Source: a virus
Lineage: Duplodnaviria; Heunggongvirae; Uroviricota; Caudoviricetes
IMG/VR virus record: IMGVR_UViG_2648501361_000004
Strand: one strand, 5' to 3'
DNA: 23,442 bases
Shown: positions 17,691-23,315 of the stretch, piece after piece
How the letters are laid out: every line of letters begins with the position of its first letter
Numbering within the stretch: position 1 is the stretch's first letter
Notes under the pieces: model-generated
What the model saw: only the letters and a program-made list of their open reading frames with translations
The model's database searches: none
What the model was told of the DNA's origin: nothing
Made by a program: the position numbers and the translations under genes

Positions 17691-19849
17691 TGGCTAAAGC
17701 ATGGAAAGATGTTATCGCTTCTCCACAGTATCAGGCGTTAACTGAAGAACAGAAAGCACAGGCTCAAGCGCAATATTTTGATGAGGTTGTTGCCCCTAAG
17801 GCTGGTGACAAATGGGCTGAAGCAAGAGATCAGTTTTATGCAGCATACCCTCCGCCTCAGCAGCAGAAAGAAGAACCATCATTGATGCAACAAGCTGGTG
17901 ATTGGCTCACAGGTGGTCAAAGTGCAGGGCAAATTGCAGAACAGGCTGGTCGTGGTCTGGTAAACATACCATTTGACGTATTGCAGGGTGGCGCAAGTCT
18001 GATTAATGCAATCAGCCAGGGGCTTGGCGGCCCCAAGGTTTTGGATGATGTTTATCGCCCTGCCGAGCGACCGACAGACCCTTACGCGCAAGCCGGTGAA
18101 ACAATTGGTGGGTATCTCCTGCCAATTGGCACAGCGGCAAAAGCTGCTGGAGCGACAGCAAAGCTCGCTGGAGATATCGGTTCCGCCGGAAACATGATTG
18201 CAGGTTCTCTTGCTGATGCTGCAAATCAGGAGGGCGACTTTGCACAAAATGCTGCCATTAACGGTGGTATCAATATTGGTGCTCAAGGCGTTCTTTCAGG
18301 TGTCGGGCGCGTTATTGCGCCAAGGGTTTCACAGGCTCTTGGTGGTGCAGCACTGAATTCTGCTAATGATGTTTCTAGGATGGCAAAGTCAGGTGCTGGG
18401 CGTCAGTCAATTGCCAGTCAGGCCGCTAATGTGTCCGAAGATGTAGCAAAAGCGGCTGAGTCTGCTGGAATTGATATAAACGCATTAACACCAGGAATGC
18501 GATCTGGAAGTCGTGGAATTGCACAAGCCGAAGGCGCATTGGCATCAACACCAGGAATTGTTCAGGACGCCCATCAGGCAGCATTTAACGAAATATCATC
18601 AAAGTTAAGTCGAAACCTTGATGAATTTGGGGCCGCATCTGGAACGGCATCAGAAAAAAGTGCGGCTATAAAACAAAGGATTCTTCAAAATCTTGATCAG
18701 ATGAAGGATGCCGAGCGCGCGGCATGGGATGACGTGCGGTCAACAATGCCAAATCAAAAAGCAAGAATGCTAAATGGTAATGCCGTTATTCAGGCAGAGC
18801 GATCTGCCGGCATACCGCTTACTCCTGAAATGAAACAGTTTGTTCAGGCAAACAATCAAGGTGGAGTAACATTTGACGGCATGAAAGCATGGAGAGCGAA
18901 ATTTGCTGATGCGGAGCAAAAATATAAGCGTAGCGGAGAGGCAAATGCGGCAAGGAGAGCAGGGGAAATACGCCGGGCAATTACTGATGATATGCGCACA
19001 ATGGCGGAAAACGGCGGATTTCTTGATGACTGGCAAAAAGCTAATGATCTGTCTAAAGCGAGGTTATCAGCACAAGAGAGTGCAGAGTCTGTTTTCGGGC
19101 GTGATTTGGCAACAGATGCACTGATTACGAATGGAGTAAAATCCCTTCAATCATCGTCAGCTAAAGGTCTTAATGGTCCTGCTGGATTCCATTCTATGAT
19201 CCGCGCGCTGCCAGAATCAGAGCGTGTTCCTGCTATATCATCAATGTTGCAAGATGCTATCTCGCATGGTGTACGTGGTGGTAAAGCTGATGCAGCAGGA
19301 ATTAACCATATCGCAGAGATACTCACTCCACAAAATGTAAAAGCCATTAGCCGATATTCCTCAGAGCTTGGAAGAATTGCAGATGCATATGGCACTCTTG
19401 CAAGAGCAGCAGTGAAACCTCAGCAGTATATTGAAAGAACAGGGAGAACTGCCAATGTACTACGCGATCTGGATGCCGGTTTATCCAACGTCACATCAAC
19501 AGTGTTAAATGCAATTGCCAATTCAACATCAGGTGCCATTGTTGGTGGAGCAGGAGGGGGCATTGCAGGCGCTGCCGCAGGTGCTTTAGTTGGCGCCGGG
19601 CTAAAAGGTGCTGTATCTAAAATTGCCACCACACGTAGTGGTCGGTATGCGATAGAGAAAGCAGTTCAGGAAGCCACGAAAGCAGTAAGAGCTGGCGGAA
19701 GTAAAGAAGCATTAGCGGCGGCGGAACGCAGATTTATGGCAAATAAAGCCGCCGTAAAAGCAATACGCGATGCAGTTGGAAACGAAGAGTTCAATCGCTT
19801 AGCGAGGGCTGGCATTGTAGCGTCGCTAAGCGGAATGGCACAGGAGTAA
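17690..19849 (+). CDS. Ejection protein (P22 gp16-like)
   Basis: 719 aa, Ala/Gly-rich with hydrophobic glycine-zipper-like stretches ([26 protein letters not shown]). Last late structural gene before the accessory island. Confidence 0.8.
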
Positions 19850-20173
19850 TTAATCATCCATGGATGTATTGAGCTTATCTCGTGTTGATGTGGCGATTTG
19901 TCCTACATTCCTAAGCCAAGATTTCAAATCCTTGATATTGTCATTGATTTCATGAATATCTTCTTTTTTTAATCTGTTAATATTATTCTCAATAATTTCA
20001 ATGGATTGCTCAATATCAGATATAGTGAATGATAGTTTGTTCTTCTCATCTTTTATTGAGTTTTTAAGTGCTTCGTTCTCAGTCTTGAGGTCAGATATCT
20101 TTTGTTTTAAAGATGCCAGTTGGTACTGAACCACAATGAGTGCGATAGCTATCGCGATAACTGTTGTATACAC
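19850..20173 (-). CDS. Small single-pass membrane protein with coiled-coil tail (unknown function)
   Basis: 107 aa from a GTG start with strong RBS (AAGGGGG). N-terminal hydrophobic helix YTTVIAIAIALIVVQY followed by heptad-like K/E/L-rich sequence. Last gene of an AT-rich minus-strand cassette. Confidence 0.6.
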   Translation of the reverse strand: MYTTVIAIAIALIVVQYQLASLKQKISDLKTENEALKNSIKDEKNKLSFTISDIEQSIEIIENNINRLKKEDIHEINDNIKDLKSWLRNVGQIATSTRDKLNTSMDD

Positions 20174-20195
20174 ACCAACCCCCTTAGTTGATATT

Positions 20196-20615
20196 TTATT
20201 TGTATGAAATCAACGAGTTAAGCTCCCTCTCATTTAGAGATTGGAATCTTTTTTCAGTTATATCAATGATGGCTGGCAATAGTTTTTTTACCTTCTCATG
20301 ACCATCAGGTTTAATGATAGCAATGATCTGGATATGAATTGGATATGTGTTGTGTACCGCAAATATCAAAAAGTTATCGCTAACTCTACGATGTATTGGC
20401 GTTGTTCTTAACCAAGGATCATCTACTCCAGGGATCCTGATGTGCGACTTGTAAATTCCCGATAAGACGGCGTGATGGTTTCTCTCAAACCCACCAATCT
20501 TACCAAGATAAGCTGAAACGGTGCCTCTGTTTTTGTAGTTTGCAAGAGCCTTCGCAAAGTATTGTTCTAATGGTCCAGCCGCTGCATCTACAACAATGCT
20601 TATGCGGTTTTCCAT
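20196..20615 (-). CDS. YafO-toxin-like protein (candidate type II toxin / mRNA interferase); family assignment tentative
   Basis: 139 aa; the C-terminal core VSDNFLIFAVHNTYPIHIQIIAIIKPDGHEK resembles, as recalled, the conserved YafO-family core (SD..LVY...LLIAIL.P..H). ATG start lies 16 nt upstream of the preceding gene's stop (coupling). Confidence 0.55.
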   Translation of the reverse strand: MENRISIVVDAAAGPLEQYFAKALANYKNRGTVSAYLGKIGGFERNHHAVLSGIYKSHIRIPGVDDPWLRTTPIHRRVSDNFLIFAVHNTYPIHIQIIAIIKPDGHEKVKKLLPAIIDITEKRFQSLNERELNSLISYK

Positions 20616-21181
20616 TTTGGTGCTTCCATGCCAAATCTTTTATGTGAATCTTCAACTGATTTCTTGAAGGAAGCCAACTCTTCTTCAGTGAACTCTTCAG
20701 GTTCAGCATATGATAGTGGTATGTGCTGCATTGCTAGCGTCACAAGCCCCATTGTTAGCCTTTTGTATTCTATAAAAGTATTGATTGAGTGGTTTTTCAT
20801 TGTTGTAAGAGTTGACATATGGGGCTTCCACGCATCGCTGTTCTCAGCGATGAAGAAGGTATACAACAGTTTCGCGATACCATAATCAAGCTTAGATATC
20901 TGATCGTTCAACATATCTACATCGTCATGTTGAATATTAAGTGAGGAAATATCTTCTTCTGTACCATTACTTAATATGTCAATGAATGTAATGTACTTTT
21001 TGCAAACTTCCTCTACAGGTGACATAACGCAGTAGATCTTGCTAAGAGCTTCAGAAGCCTGTTTTTTAGACAAAGAGCCGCTATGACTGCGATCAAAGTC
21101 TGAAATTGAACGCTCGATAGATGTTGATATGTCAGAAAAAACGTTTTCAATTTTTCCTGGCTCTTGATTCAGGATGGCCAT
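20600..21181 (-). CDS. Hypothetical protein, first gene of the accessory cassette (candidate partner/antitoxin of the YafO-like gene)
   Basis: ORF open 20600..21199 (GTG). ATG at 21181 with upstream AGG is preferred (~193 aa). Predicted helical, acidic protein with no recognised domain. AT-rich codon usage unlike the structural genes. Confidence 0.6.
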   Translation of the reverse strand: MAILNQEPGKIENVFSDISTSIERSISDFDRSHSGSLSKKQASEALSKIYCVMSPVEEVCKKYITFIDILSNGTEEDISSLNIQHDDVDMLNDQISKLDYGIAKLLYTFFIAENSDAWKPHMSTLTTMKNHSINTFIEYKRLTMGLVTLAMQHIPLSYAEPEEFTEEELASFKKSVEDSHKRFGMEAPKWKTA

Positions 21182-21241
21182 AACGCCTATCTCAATCACA
21201 ATGTATACCTTGTTATTTTATATCAACGAACAAACATTGAC

Positions 21242-21490
21242 CTATCTGGTCTCGTACATTTTTTTCAGGGTTTCAAACACCATCTTCTTAACAATTTCTG
21301 CTTGCTGATCAGCCATACGTTCTGCTTCGTCACGGTAACCTGCAATCGGTGATGGTTTTGATAGCGCATCCTGAACGATTTGTAATAACTCAGAGTTCAT
21401 TGACCTTCCGTTAGCCTCGGCTCTTAATTTCAATTTTTCTCTTACTTCCAAAGGCATACGGAAGTTAAAGTGCGGATCATCTCTAGCCAT
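21242..21490 (-). CDS. mnt: Mnt repressor (ribbon-helix-helix)
   Basis: 82 aa, MARDDPHFNFRMPLEVREKLKLRAEANGRSMNSELLQIVQDALSKPSP..., near-identical to P22 Mnt as recalled. Confidence 0.9.
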   Translation of the reverse strand: MARDDPHFNFRMPLEVREKLKLRAEANGRSMNSELLQIVQDALSKPSPIAGYRDEAERMADQQAEIVKKMVFETLKKMYETR

Positions 21491-21513
21491 GCCATCACTC
21501 CAAGTTAGTATCT

Positions 21514-21777
21514 CTAACTTTCGTCTTTATTGTTGCCATACATGCATTTCAACTTCTCAACATCATGTTCAAGATCTATCAATCGTGATGCTATAGTTGC
21601 AAGGTCTAGTGCTTGAATGTGTTTATTTTTTTCGGTCCATGCTTCAAGTGCAGCGACCATCTCAGCATTTAATGAACGAGAATTAGCCTCAGCCAGTTCA
21701 ATAAGACGTTCCTTTATCTCTACAGGAAGCCTCAGATTCACTTGAGGGTTTTTGTACTTACGATCAGACATCGGCAC
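21514..21777 (-). CDS. Second Mnt/Arc-like ribbon-helix-helix repressor with C-terminal extension
   Basis: 87 aa; PQVNLRLPVEIKERLIELAEANSRSLNAEMV is the Arc/Mnt RHH signature. Reads divergently from arc, directly upstream of mnt. Confidence 0.8.
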   Translation of the reverse strand: MPMSDRKYKNPQVNLRLPVEIKERLIELAEANSRSLNAEMVAALEAWTEKNKHIQALDLATIASRLIDLEHDVEKLKCMYGNNKDES

Positions 21778-21799
21778 ACCCTGAATAATTTTTTACCAC

Positions 21800-21857
21800 A
21801 GGATATGTAGGTGTCTATTGACTATCAATGCGTACCTAAATACTATGTATGCGTACC
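21800..21857. promoter_or_regulatory. Divergent back-to-back promoters with candidate operators (immI control region)
   Basis: Plus strand: -35 TTGACT 21818-21823, 17-nt spacer, -10 TACTAT 21841-21846 (Pant-like). Minus strand: -35 TTGATA (complement of 21823-21828), 17-nt spacer, -10 TATCCT (complement of 21800-21805). Direct repeat ATGCGTACC at 21828-21836 and 21849-21857 (21-bp spacing) and a palindrome GTATG-N7-CATAC overlap the promoter. Confidence 0.45.
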
Positions 21858-21876
21858 ACATACAGCGGAGGATGCA

Positions 21877-22017
21877 ATGAAGGTAAAAACACTGCGTATG
21901 CCAGAGAAGTTAGAAAAAATCCTTGAAGAGAAAGCAAAGGAAGAGTGTCGATCGTTTAGCGCAGAAGTAATTAAACGGGTGCTGGACAGCTTGAAGAGAG
22001 AGGGGGTGATGGTATGA
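21877..22017 (+). CDS. arc: Arc repressor (ribbon-helix-helix)
   Basis: 46 aa from ATG 21877 with GGAGGA RBS: MKVKTLRMPEKLEKILEEKAKEECRSFSAEVIKRVLDSLKREGVMV, parallel to P22 Arc (RSVNSEIYQRVMESFKKEG). The track ORF 21811..22017 is an upstream extension. Confidence 0.8.
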   Translation: MKVKTLRMPEKLEKILEEKAKEECRSFSAEVIKRVLDSLKREGVMV

Positions 22018-22217
22018 GTAAAGAATGTTGTTTCTGCGGCATTAGCGAATCAGACGCTGATCAAACATACATTTACTCTAAAGAAACAGGTCGGATGCTG
22101 TGTAGTGACTGCGTGTTGGACATCATAAGATACAAGCATCTTGGATGTTCTGCCAGCATTAGCAATATAGGTGAAGTATACGAAGGGAAAGATATAACTG
22201 ATAGAGCAGAAAGTTGA
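22014..22217 (+). CDS. Small Cys-rich (zinc-ribbon-like) protein between arc and ant
   Basis: 67 aa with CCFCG...CSDC...C. ATG overlaps the arc stop (ATGA), suggesting translational coupling. No homologue recognised. Confidence 0.55.
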   Translation: MSKECCFCGISESDADQTYIYSKETGRMLCSDCVLDIIRYKHLGCSASISNIGEVYEGKDITDRAES

Positions 22218-22280
22218 AGCCCCAACTGCGGGAACAGTCAGGGCTTCGGTATCGTAAAACCACGCATAGGAATTAACGAC

Positions 22281-23204
22281 ATGAAAAGTATAGCAACAGC
22301 AGTATCTACTATCAATGTACCATTCCACGGCGCAGAGCTTTATGTTGTCAATCACAACGGCGAACCGTATACCCCAATGAAACCTATCGTTGAGGGAATG
22401 GGGCTAGACTGGAAATCTCAACATAAGAAGATTTCTCAACGATTCTCGAATGGTATGGTGGAAATCACCATACCTTCTGCCGGTGGGGTGCAAGCCATGA
22501 TTTGTATGGCTTTACGAAAATTGGCAGCTTGGTTGAACAGCATCAGTCCTAACAAAGTCCGCCCTGAAATCCGCGACAAGGTAATCCAGTATCAGGAAGA
22601 GTGTGACGATGTGCTCTACGAGTACTGGACTAAAGGCCATGTAGTTAACCCACGCAAAGCTAAAAAGGCGTTGCAGGGTAAAATCACCACTGAACAGCAG
22701 GAAGCCATTAAACAACTCGTCATGAGTCGCGGTCAGTCTCTGCCAAAAGAAAAACAGGCTAAGGCGATGATCACCATGTGGTCGTCACTGAAATCCCATT
22801 TTGGATGTTCGTACAAAGAAATCAGTGAGGAGCAGTTTACCGAAGCACTATCACTTGCAGCTCGAGTTCCACTTGAAGGTGAGTTCATTGGCAAACAAGA
22901 GAAGAAAACCAACGAGCTTTCTGCAAAAGAAGTAAACAGCCTTGTATGGCTATGGGATTATGCCAACCGCTCACAGGCATTATTCCGCGAACTGTATCAG
23001 GCGCTAAAACAAATTCAATCGAACTATTCCGGCAGATGCTACGACTACGGTCATGAATTCTCGTATGTTATCGGAATGGCGAGAGATGTTTTAATCAACC
23101 ATACACGAGATGTTGATATTAATGAGCCAGACGGACCAACGAATCTTTCCGCATGGATGAGACTTAAGAATAAAGAATTACCTCCTTCAGTACATAACTA
23201 CTGA
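22281..23204 (+). CDS. ant: Antirepressor Ant (P22 Ant-like)
   Basis: 307 aa, last gene of the arc operon as in P22 immI, followed by an intrinsic terminator. Identification rests on size, position and general antirepressor N-terminal character. Confidence 0.75.
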   Translation: MKSIATAVSTINVPFHGAELYVVNHNGEPYTPMKPIVEGMGLDWKSQHKKISQRFSNGMVEITIPSAGGVQAMICMALRKLAAWLNSISPNKVRPEIRDKVIQYQEECDDVLYEYWTKGHVVNPRKAKKALQGKITTEQQEAIKQLVMSRGQSLPKEKQAKAMITMWSSLKSHFGCSYKEISEEQFTEALSLAARVPLEGEFIGKQEKKTNELSAKEVNSLVWLWDYANRSQALFRELYQALKQIQSNYSGRCYDYGHEFSYVIGMARDVLINHTRDVDINEPDGPTNLSAWMRLKNKELPPSVHNY

Positions 23205-23222
23205 TAGATAACCAACGCAACG

Positions 23223-23247
23223 ACCCAGCTTCGGCTGGGTTTTTTTA
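23223..23247 (+). terminator. Intrinsic terminator after ant
   Basis: ACCCAGC-TTCG-GCTGGGT hairpin followed by TTTTTTT. Confidence 0.7.
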
Positions 23248-23304
23248 TGCCCAAAATTCACCGTAGCCATGCTTCGGCGATTCCTTGTATCTGGAGCAAA
23301 TTAA

Positions 23305-23315
23305 ATGACAGACAT
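23305..23315 (+). pseudogene. Tailspike gene (P22 gene 9-like) 5' end, interrupted after nt 11 by IS1
   Basis: ATGACAGACAT (Met-Thr-Asp-Ile...) with GGAG RBS 8 nt upstream matches the start of P22-family tailspikes as recalled, at the expected position after ant. The reading frame is then broken by the IS1 inverted repeat. Confidence 0.5.

Follow-up and report, generated by a model that had tools for sequence, protein, structure and literature searches.

A probable hybrid immI region in phage CUS-3: an Mnt2-type control cassette beside a P22-type mnt gene apparently lacking an operator in cis

The immI region of phage CUS-3 is likely to be a hybrid formed by a cassette swap, in which an alternative control segment, consisting of an Mnt-like repressor gene (here called mnt2), a set of repeated boxes, an Arc-like gene (arc2) and optionally a small gene orf67, replaced exactly the Pmnt/Omnt/Oarc/Pant-arc segment of a P22-type phage. 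The P22-type sar and ant would then have stayed on the right of the new segment, and an intact mnt gene, without promoter or operator, on the left. The P22 immI region is a textbook example of a genetic switch, with Arc and Mnt serving as model proteins of DNA recognition by a beta-sheet. The region was analysed in a window of 23,442 nucleotides (nt), which is the whole stretch of DNA of the IMG/VR virus record IMGVR_UViG_2648501361_000004. Positions 19800-23315 of this window are 100% identical to Enterobacteria phage CUS-3 (CP000711.1), a P22-like Lederbergvirus prophage whose host is E. coli K1 strain RS218.

Two co-oriented genes encoding ribbon-helix-helix (RHH) proteins lie on the minus strand, at 21242-21490 (82 amino acids, aa) and 21514-21777 (87 aa if translation starts at a GTG codon). 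Open reading frames (ORFs), Pfam matches and alignments all agree here with the original prediction, which was made from the letters of the window. The second gene has an ATG codon at 21771 that yields a protein of 85 aa (MSDRKYKNPQ...), and this start is used by GenBank, the Prokaryotic Genome Annotation Pipeline (PGAP) and all homologues. The gap between mnt2 and mnt is 23 nt with a GGAG Shine-Dalgarno box inside, and a scan of the minus strand found neither a promoter-like nor a terminator-like site between them. The simplest reading, also proposed in the original prediction, is that both repressor genes are co-transcribed leftward. The features of the region are, in window coordinates:

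21242..21490, minus strand: P22-type mnt, intact, without an operator in cis (Pfam, alignment to structure 1mnt)
21491..21534, minus strand: putative recombination joint, made of the spacer 21491-21513 with the mnt Shine-Dalgarno box and the lineage-specific mnt2 tail 21511-21534 (NNKDES and stop)
21514..21771, minus strand: mnt2, 85 aa (87 aa if started from the GTG at 21777) (Pfam Arc, AlphaFold2, Foldseek, homologues)
21800..21828, minus strand: candidate leftward promoter Pmnt2 (promoter scan, conservation across genera)
21804..21864, no strand assigned: conserved 61-nt control core (repeat finder, comparison across genera)
21818..21846, plus strand: candidate rightward promoter of arc2-orf67-ant (promoter scan, conservation across genera)
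21877..22017, plus strand: arc2, a 46-aa Arc-like RHH gene (Pfam Arc)
22014..22217, plus strand: orf67, encoding a small cysteine-rich protein, an optional member of the cassette (PHROG 7150)
22212..22279, minus strand: sar antisense RNA of the P22 type (Rfam RF00262)
22281..23204, plus strand: ant, antirepressor (Pfam P22_AR_N and P22_AR_C)

The gene order in CUS-3 is P22-type mnt, then the segment mnt2, boxes, arc2 and orf67, then P22-type sar-ant. This is the layout of an immI region, with mnt2 on the left divergent from arc2-orf67-ant on the right, and equivalent layouts occur in at least ten genera. The region also occupies the same genomic slot as in P22, between gene 16 and the tailspike gene. 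It shares with P22 immI (mnt/Pmnt-Omnt-Oarc-Pant/arc/sar/ant) a maintenance repressor divergent from an Arc-type repressor and ant, overlapping face-to-face promoters, P22-type sar and ant, and a true mnt orthologue. It differs in that the promoter/operator/arc segment is replaced wholesale, Omnt and Oarc being absent. The operators of P22 are one 17-base-pair (bp) and one 21-bp dyad, whereas CUS-3 has three direct ATGCGTACCTA-type boxes in a 21-bp phase; the candidates for working repressors in CUS-3 are Mnt2 and Arc2, while mnt is second in the operon and lacks a target. Phage epsilon34 and E. coli APEC E19035 have mnt and arc as direct divergent neighbours, and, judged by this canonical order, the tandem arrangement of CUS-3 is non-canonical. 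The tandem itself is already visible in the 2007 GenBank annotation (CP000711.1), where both RHH genes are labelled 'mnt', and immI is a known kind of system. PGAP labels all three small genes, mnt, mnt2 and arc2, as 'Arc family'. A literature search found no study interpreting the tandem or describing an Mnt2-type cassette or its operators.

Alignment with canonical phages puts the left joint at about 20 nt in front of the ATG of mnt. Similarity to canonical mnt leaders stops at about 21510, at the point where the -35 box of Pant, Oarc and Omnt come next in canonical phages. Past this joint CUS-3 shows the 3' end of mnt2 instead, and similarity to the prophages that have mnt2 only begins at about 21519-21536. 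The 23-nt spacer AGATACTAACTTGGAGTGATGGC is identical in all tandem loci, Salmonella included. The right boundary of the swap would be just left of the sar terminator, since a full-length P22-type sar and a Psar-like promoter are present. The breakpoints can be placed to a few nucleotides on the left and to a few tens on the right. The sar RNA (22212-22279, minus strand) matches the Rfam model RF00262 over its full length with 84.6 bits (gathering score 43, E-value 1.4e-17) and spans the ribosome-binding site of ant, as expected in immI. The Psar-like promoter lies on the minus strand inside the start of ant (22315-22287) and consists of TTGATA, a 17-nt spacer and TATACT with an extended TG (ten of twelve positions matched). 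The ant product matches Pfam P22_AR_N (1e-45) and P22_AR_C (5e-29).

The 82-aa protein has the two domains of Mnt, Arc (PF03869, 1.1e-27) and Repressor_Mnt (PF11423, 2.5e-15). It matches the P22 Mnt structure 1mnt with an E-value of 2e-40 over 75 residues and the structure of the C-terminal domain, 1qey, with 3e-7; orthology to P22 Mnt is at 83-87% identity. In 1mnt, epsilon34 Mnt and E19035 Mnt the stretch of residues 2-12 (ARDDPHFNFRM) is the same as in CUS-3. Arg2, His6, Asn8 and Arg10, which we take from classical P22 genetics to be the operator-reading residues of Mnt, are all unchanged in CUS-3. The sequence identifies the 82-aa gene as a genuine mnt orthologue. The orthologues of Mnt are widely labelled 'partition protein ATPase' (NC_011976, NC_004348, PHROG 795), which looks like an annotation error passed on from record to record, the protein being an 82-aa RHH repressor.

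No cognate operator of this protein was found. Allowing up to four mismatches, a search for the 17-bp Omnt of P22, AGGTCCACGGTGGACCT, gave no match either in the window or across the CUS-3 genome of 40,207 bp; the best match has 6 mismatches out of 17 in the window and 5 out of 17 in the full genome. Neither the window nor the complete CUS-3 genome contains Oarc of P22, ATGATAGAAGCACTCTACTAT, and the tandem loci all lack both Oarc and Omnt. The Omnt half-site GTGGACC occurs as just three isolated chance copies in structural genes, none of them near the locus. Phages with the canonical layout served as positive controls. In epsilon34 Omnt was found with one mismatch and Oarc was perfect, and in the K1 prophage of APEC E19035 both operators are perfect and lie between mnt and arc. 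The Mnt protein of the E19035 prophage is one residue off that of CUS-3, and the cargo is the same (hkcB, the YafO-like gene and the 199-aa gene). Hence mnt of CUS-3 has no Omnt overlapping Pant beside it, and the place directly divergent from arc, where its own Pmnt should be, is occupied by mnt2, with no promoter-like site in front of mnt. On these sequence comparisons the P22-type Mnt of CUS-3 is an orphan in cis without a promoter of its own, and its gene is probably read from Pmnt2. An intact Mnt without an operator is a clean, testable case of the exchange of immunity modules.

The protein encoded by mnt2 matches Pfam Arc with 3.4e-10 and 40 bits (cut-off 20.4). Its matches to proteins of known structure include 1mnt (E-value 2e-5) and Arc (4e-4), with 32-36% identity to Mnt and Arc. 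The AlphaFold2 model, built with 44 homologues, has a mean pLDDT of 79, with residues 17-29 and 34-48 forming the RHH helices and residues 57-79 a long helix at the C-terminus, whose hydrophobic residues have a heptad-like (3-4) spacing. The best Foldseek matches are the Arc-operator complex 1par, Arc (1bdv and 1baz), AmrZ and CopG; the probability is 1.00 for Arc, AmrZ and CopG, with weak E-values (best 0.016), the protein being small. The model agrees with the RHH fold claimed for the 87-aa protein in the original prediction and predicts a C-terminal helix in addition. A Pfam search gave no match of Mnt2 to the Mnt C-terminal domain (PF11423), and the C-terminal segments of Mnt and Mnt2 are unrelated in sequence, although both proteins are assigned to PHROG 795. 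The beta-strand reads PQVNLRLP in Mnt2 and PHFNFRMP in Mnt. Mnt2 carries Gln/Asn/Arg where Arc has Gln9, Asn11 and Arg13, whereas Mnt has His/Asn/Arg in these positions.

A protein search found 141 homologues of Mnt2 of 77-85 aa across Enterobacterales, in Escherichia, Salmonella, Yersinia, Citrobacter, Klebsiella, Tatumella, Pectobacterium, Serratia, Morganella, Shewanella and Xenorhabdus. Positions R4, Y6, K7, P9, Q10, N12, L13, R14 and L15 are invariant among them. By its position, Mnt2 is a candidate for the cognate maintenance repressor of the CUS-3 immI type. Position and conservation are consistent with a tetramer of Mnt2 that would repress Pant and thereby free its own promoter.

The region between mnt2 and arc2 contains two overlapping face-to-face promoter candidates found by the promoter scan. 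The rightward one consists of TTGACT, 17 nt and TACTAT (21818-21846). The leftward one, Pmnt2, has the -35 hexamer TTGATA (21828-21823), a 17-nt spacer and the -10 hexamer TATCCT (21805-21800). The rightward promoter is conserved across genera, and so are the -35 hexamer of Pmnt2 and its -10 hexamer in the form TAnnCT. The repeat finder detected three direct repeats in exact 21-bp phase. Box A (GTAGGTGTCTA, 21807-21817) is degenerate in CUS-3 and lies in the spacer of the leftward promoter; in several other genera it is a perfect ATGCGTACCTA. Box B (ATGCGTACCTA, 21828-21838) lies in the spacer of the rightward promoter, and box C (ATGCGTACCAC, 21849-21859) at the rightward start site. The palindrome ATTGACTATCAAT (21817-21829) contains both -35 hexamers, and the dyad TGTATG-N7-CATACA (21846-21864) surrounds box C. 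The motif TGCRTACC occurs twice in the 40-kb CUS-3 genome, both times within the control core. An Arc-type operator was also considered in this region, since Mnt2 shares the Gln/Asn/Arg strand residues with Arc, and was rejected: the TAGG..TCTA pair is misspaced, and there is no match to Oarc with five or fewer mismatches.

The 61-nt core (21804-21864) was compared in 13 anchored loci of 12 genera with CUS-3 as the reference. It shows 77-95% identity to CUS-3, as against 48-80% for the adjacent coding DNA of mnt2, and mnt2 always adjoins the conserved core. In Moellerella and Providencia the homologues of Mnt2 have no Arc or Ant neighbour and are situated near a umuC-like gene (loci L018-L022, about 3900-4000), and their own promoter is overlapped by boxes GATACCT-GGTACGC-GATACCT with a spacing of 10-11 bp. 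We assign the boxes to Mnt2, not to Arc2, because they persist in these loci without an Arc or Ant neighbour, and this suggests that the boxes are the recognition element of Mnt2. The second operator specificity, which the original prediction proposed as one of its implications, is present, given the different strand of Mnt2 and a control region that has ATGCGTACCTA boxes and no Omnt.

In Salmonella phage SEN22 and in the E. coli prophages of PK8217, ISHS7 and Z0117EC0133, a homologue of mnt2 lies next to and divergent from a 46-aa Arc-like gene that precedes ant, and no P22-type mnt is present. The same layout, with cargo after mnt2, was observed in siphovirus-type prophages of Klebsiella and Morganella, and prophages of Yersinia and Photorhabdus are also among the carriers of the mnt-less cassette. 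In nine further genera mnt2 and the conserved core occur without P22-type mnt, in most loci with a divergent Arc-like gene. These loci are similar to CUS-3 in that mnt2, the core and mostly arc2 are homologous, with 73-95% identity of the mnt2 proteins to CUS-3 in the E. coli, Salmonella and Klebsiella examples, and in that cargo likewise follows mnt2 and is presumably co-transcribed with it. The difference is the P22-type mnt after mnt2, which is present in CUS-3, in 44 E. coli relatives and in a Salmonella lineage and absent from the mnt-less loci. The genes of the cassette are annotated in other prophages just as 'Arc family DNA-binding protein' or 'regulatory protein'.

Since many mnt-less prophages have this layout, the usual position of mnt2 is beside the Arc-like gene. 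This is at variance with the original prediction, according to which the 87-aa gene had been inserted beside a resident mnt. That prediction had also named, as an outcome that would overturn it, a gene that is the normal neighbour of arc and has a known role; the neighbourhood is as described there, whereas the role is deduced from position. The odd one out is the P22-type mnt: the swap would have taken away its promoter and operator, and the latter is missing genome-wide. The distribution indicates that the Mnt2-type cassette is a separate, widespread alternative immI control cassette. It would represent a second widespread immI 'specificity class', with a repressor pair of its own and an unusually well conserved 61-nt operator/promoter core common to podovirus-type and siphovirus-type prophages of Enterobacterales.

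The frequency of the tandem was estimated in 5426 complete E. coli genomes. P22-type control regions were found in 173 of them, Mnt2-type control regions in 145 and the tandem in 45, so that the tandem accounts for about 31% of the Mnt2-type regions and about 100 of the 145 Mnt2-type immI regions have no mnt. Identical copies of CUS-3, in strains like UTI89, IHE3034, NU14 and APEC O18, make up 36 of the 45 carriers. The remaining nine belong to four further sequence types, which differ in their ant genes, their tailspikes and their cargo (a PIN gene, a Panacea-domain pair, small ORFs). The tandem is found as well in a Salmonella lineage whose tailspike is of the P22 type. The joint is identical in these six mosaic backgrounds, and in all six sequence types, from E. 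coli and Salmonella, mnt is intact and its contact residues are unchanged. All carriers have an identical spacer and differ very little in mnt2 and in the 5' part of mnt; their sequences start to diverge within the 3' half of mnt and diverge completely past it. The identical spacer and near-identical flanks therefore indicate that the joint arose once and recently. The pattern also suggests that mnt now serves as a homology arm for exchange of cargo with canonical phages. Allele diversity and dN/dS (0.04-0.21) of the tandem mnt were considered as evidence of selection and rejected, as the divergence was imported by recombination in the 3' half.

The following mode of regulation may be proposed. 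In a lysogen Mnt2, bound to boxes B and C, would keep the rightward promoter of arc2-orf67-ant off. Mnt2 would act as an RHH dimer joined by the C-terminal helix into a higher oligomer, as Mnt does. Occupation of B and C would free the overlapping weak leftward promoter from the strong rightward one, again as with Mnt in P22, and the degenerate box A in the spacer of the leftward promoter could provide autoregulation at high levels of Mnt2. Arc2 and sar would damp expression of ant after infection, like Arc and sar in P22. The leftward transcript would contain mnt2, then the P22-type mnt, then the YafO-like cargo. These steps (occupancy by Mnt2, the function of box A, the functions of Arc2 and sar, the composition of the transcript) are inferred from sequence features.

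Since the P22-type Mnt has no target in CUS-3 itself, a role in trans comes into consideration. There is close to an even chance, in our opinion, that in a CUS-3 lysogen it silences ant of superinfecting phages with Omnt-type control regions. Phages of this kind are frequent in E. coli, K1-specific ones among them, for example the E19035 prophage; as the P22-type control region is present in 173 of the 5426 genomes, targets in trans do circulate. Antirepressors are able to act across prophages, inactivating the repressors of other prophages (PMC3121763, PMC7380047). Somewhat more tentatively, one may suggest a dual immI immunity, in which ant of CUS-3, locked by Mnt2 and Arc2, escapes silencing on entering lysogens with P22-type immI, while the retained Mnt silences ant of Omnt-type superinfecting phages. 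The crosstalk of Gifsy antirepressors (Lemire et al. 2011, PMC3121763) likewise provides a rationale for silencing a foreign ant; it differs in that the Gifsy antirepressors are controlled by LexA and no Mnt-type guard is described, and the link to CUS-3 is ours. If the reading is true, the stacking of heterotypic Mnt genes would amount to a general type of anti-antirepressor defence that had gone unrecognised, in the operon slot also used by SieA, toxin-antitoxin-like and GmrSD/HEPN cargo. This bears on whether prophages stack repressors against foreign antirepressors and on induction and crosstalk in extraintestinal pathogenic E. coli (ExPEC) of the K1 type (UTI89, RS218, IHE3034).

Heterotypic stacking of Mnt-type genes is not unique to CUS-3, since it is also seen in Xenorhabdus and Arsenophonus. 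Two species of Xenorhabdus (L026 and L028, 3745-4234) have a mirror-image tandem, where an Mnt-like 82-aa gene is proximal and adjoins the divergent Arc-like gene. Its product has a recognisable Mnt C-terminal domain and a different strand sequence. The distal Mnt2-like gene of 77 aa starts after 7 nt and has dN/dS of 0.19 at dS of 0.62. No Mnt2 boxes are found in the local control regions, which contain repeats of their own. In Arsenophonus (L016, 4001-4582) mnt2 is followed by a third kind of RHH gene, encoding 79 aa.

Several observations weigh against the scheme of a Mnt2-controlled cassette with a functional Mnt behind it. The prophage of PK8217 (L004, 1510-1599) keeps the last 25 residues of a P22-type mnt, about 64% identical, downstream of mnt2 and two cargo genes, which shows that mnt is dispensable and can be lost from Mnt2-type regions. 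The tandem is young, so that the intactness of mnt says little about selection; with a recent joint and a homologously exchanged 3' half, neither intactness nor low dN/dS is a sign of selection on mnt in the tandem. None of the 45 E. coli genomes carrying the tandem was found to have another P22-type mnt locus, and no co-resident target of Mnt is evident in them. As for the boxes, the pairing of a particular RHH protein with a particular box is deduced from their co-conservation, and the 21-bp spacing of the boxes is wider than that in the operators of Mnt and Arc.

Several of these points would be expected if mnt were a pure relic, that is, a neutral passenger left behind because the left breakpoint fell just upstream of it, having no function in CUS-3 and bound to decay. 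We regard this as a serious possibility, if one somewhat short of even. It agrees with a CUS-3 genome devoid of the cognate Omnt, with a joint of single recent origin and near-identical flanks, with the truncated mnt of PK8217 and with the large number of Mnt2-type E. coli immI regions that have no mnt. Phages L and ST64T resemble CUS-3 in retaining an Mnt-family gene without the canonical partners (PMC8022706, PMC2629481), and the lone mnt-like gene of phage L has already been viewed as a possible remnant, its authors leaving open the choice between this and another function (PMC8022706); in these phages, however, arc and ant are gone, whereas CUS-3 keeps ant under a different set of repressors. 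A passenger gene is harder to reconcile with the intact mnt and unchanged contact residues in six sequence types of E. coli and Salmonella, with the share of the tandem among Mnt2-type regions, and with the heterotypic tandems, which arose independently in Xenorhabdus and Arsenophonus, the distal Xenorhabdus gene being under purifying selection.

The original prediction also implied that the two repressors might act together on the ant operon of CUS-3 and/or on the downstream cargo, either through two operators or as Mnt/Mnt2 hetero-oligomers. The adjacency and probable co-transcription of mnt and mnt2 and the helical C-terminal tails of both proteins fit this idea, yet we consider it very improbable. 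There is no Omnt-like site in the control region or in the genome, and none with five or fewer mismatches at 21200-21241 in front of the cargo cassette, where a site for Mnt had been suggested, or elsewhere in the window. The canonical E19035 phage, moreover, has the same cargo after mnt with no operator between them. Regulation by heteromers found no support: the proteins are about 32-34% identical, their C-termini are unrelated, Mnt2 has no Repressor_Mnt match, and its cassette occurs without Mnt in most hosts. It is still less credible that one of the RHH proteins, instead of being an immI repressor, serves the YafO-like toxin module downstream as its antitoxin or autoregulator. RHH proteins are common as antitoxins, a YafO-family toxin-like gene does lie downstream in the same orientation, and both RHH proteins have weak FitA-like_RHH matches. 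However, a type II RHH antitoxin gene lies upstream of the toxin gene, overlaps it and co-varies with it, and neither RHH gene of CUS-3 shows this pattern. The usual place of the antitoxin, overlapping the toxin gene, is taken by the 199-aa gene; mnt is an 83-87% orthologue of P22 Mnt; both mnt and mnt2 are found with many unrelated cargos (PIN, Panacea, GmrSD/HEPN, HicA); and the distribution of mnt2 follows that of the control core, arc2 and ant rather than that of the cargo. Retention of Mnt for action in trans, with the qualifications given above, is the reading that we prefer for the P22-type gene.

The 46-aa product of arc2 matches Pfam Arc with 3e-8 and 33.8 bits (cut-off 20.4), and its homologues are divergent from mnt2 in most loci. 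The gene is not annotated in CP000711, where it falls inside the boundary sequence feature 'bsq2'; in E. coli genomes it has the RefSeq PGAP name 'Arc family DNA-binding protein'. The 'bsq2' feature is said to have been defined by King et al. in 2007. That arc2 was simply left unannotated explains the statement, made in 2008, that CUS-3 apparently lacks arc and thus controls ant differently (PMC2629481).

The orf67 product is a CxxC...CxxC protein encoded between arc2 and the sar terminator and belongs to PHROG 7150, which has no assigned function. A search for known zinc-finger families gave at best a weak RNF4/RING-like match (E-value 0.005). The gene is present in CUS-3, PK8217 and TW14425 and absent from the ISHS7 and Z0117 cassettes, and its product shows no similarity to that of the 89-aa gene at the equivalent position in E19035. 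The ant gene is disrupted by mobile elements in three Mnt2-type regions (positions in the respective loci):

SEN22 (L003), 1455-2602: transposon
TW14425 (L007), 3527-6030: IS66
MFDS1019527 (L042), 3996-6222: IS2

Downstream of mnt there is an accessory cassette:

19850..21199, minus strand: accessory cargo cassette with a 199-aa gene, a 139-aa gene and hkcB (Pfam YafO_toxin)

It occupies the slot of sieA in P22. The gene of the 199-aa protein (PHROG 18235) overlaps the 139-aa YafO-family toxin-like gene (Pfam YafO_toxin, PF13957, 3e-11) by 16 nt, and the third gene, hkcB, encodes a predicted coiled-coil protein. The scan found no terminator-like site between mnt and this cassette, which probably belongs to the leftward mnt2-mnt transcription unit. 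The same cassette follows mnt in the K1 prophage of APEC E19035 (L043), which has a canonical immI. In general, the position just past mnt2 or mnt is a hot spot for cargo, and the following sets were found there in other prophages (positions in the respective loci):

Morganella (L012-L014), 4266-6136: GmrSD_N gene and HEPN gene
TW14425 (L007), 1174-2432: hypothetical gene and PIN gene
STEC346 and VTB96816v (L040, L041), 2096-2963: convergent Panacea-domain pair
SEN22 (L003), 3772-4626: YcfA/HicA-like pair

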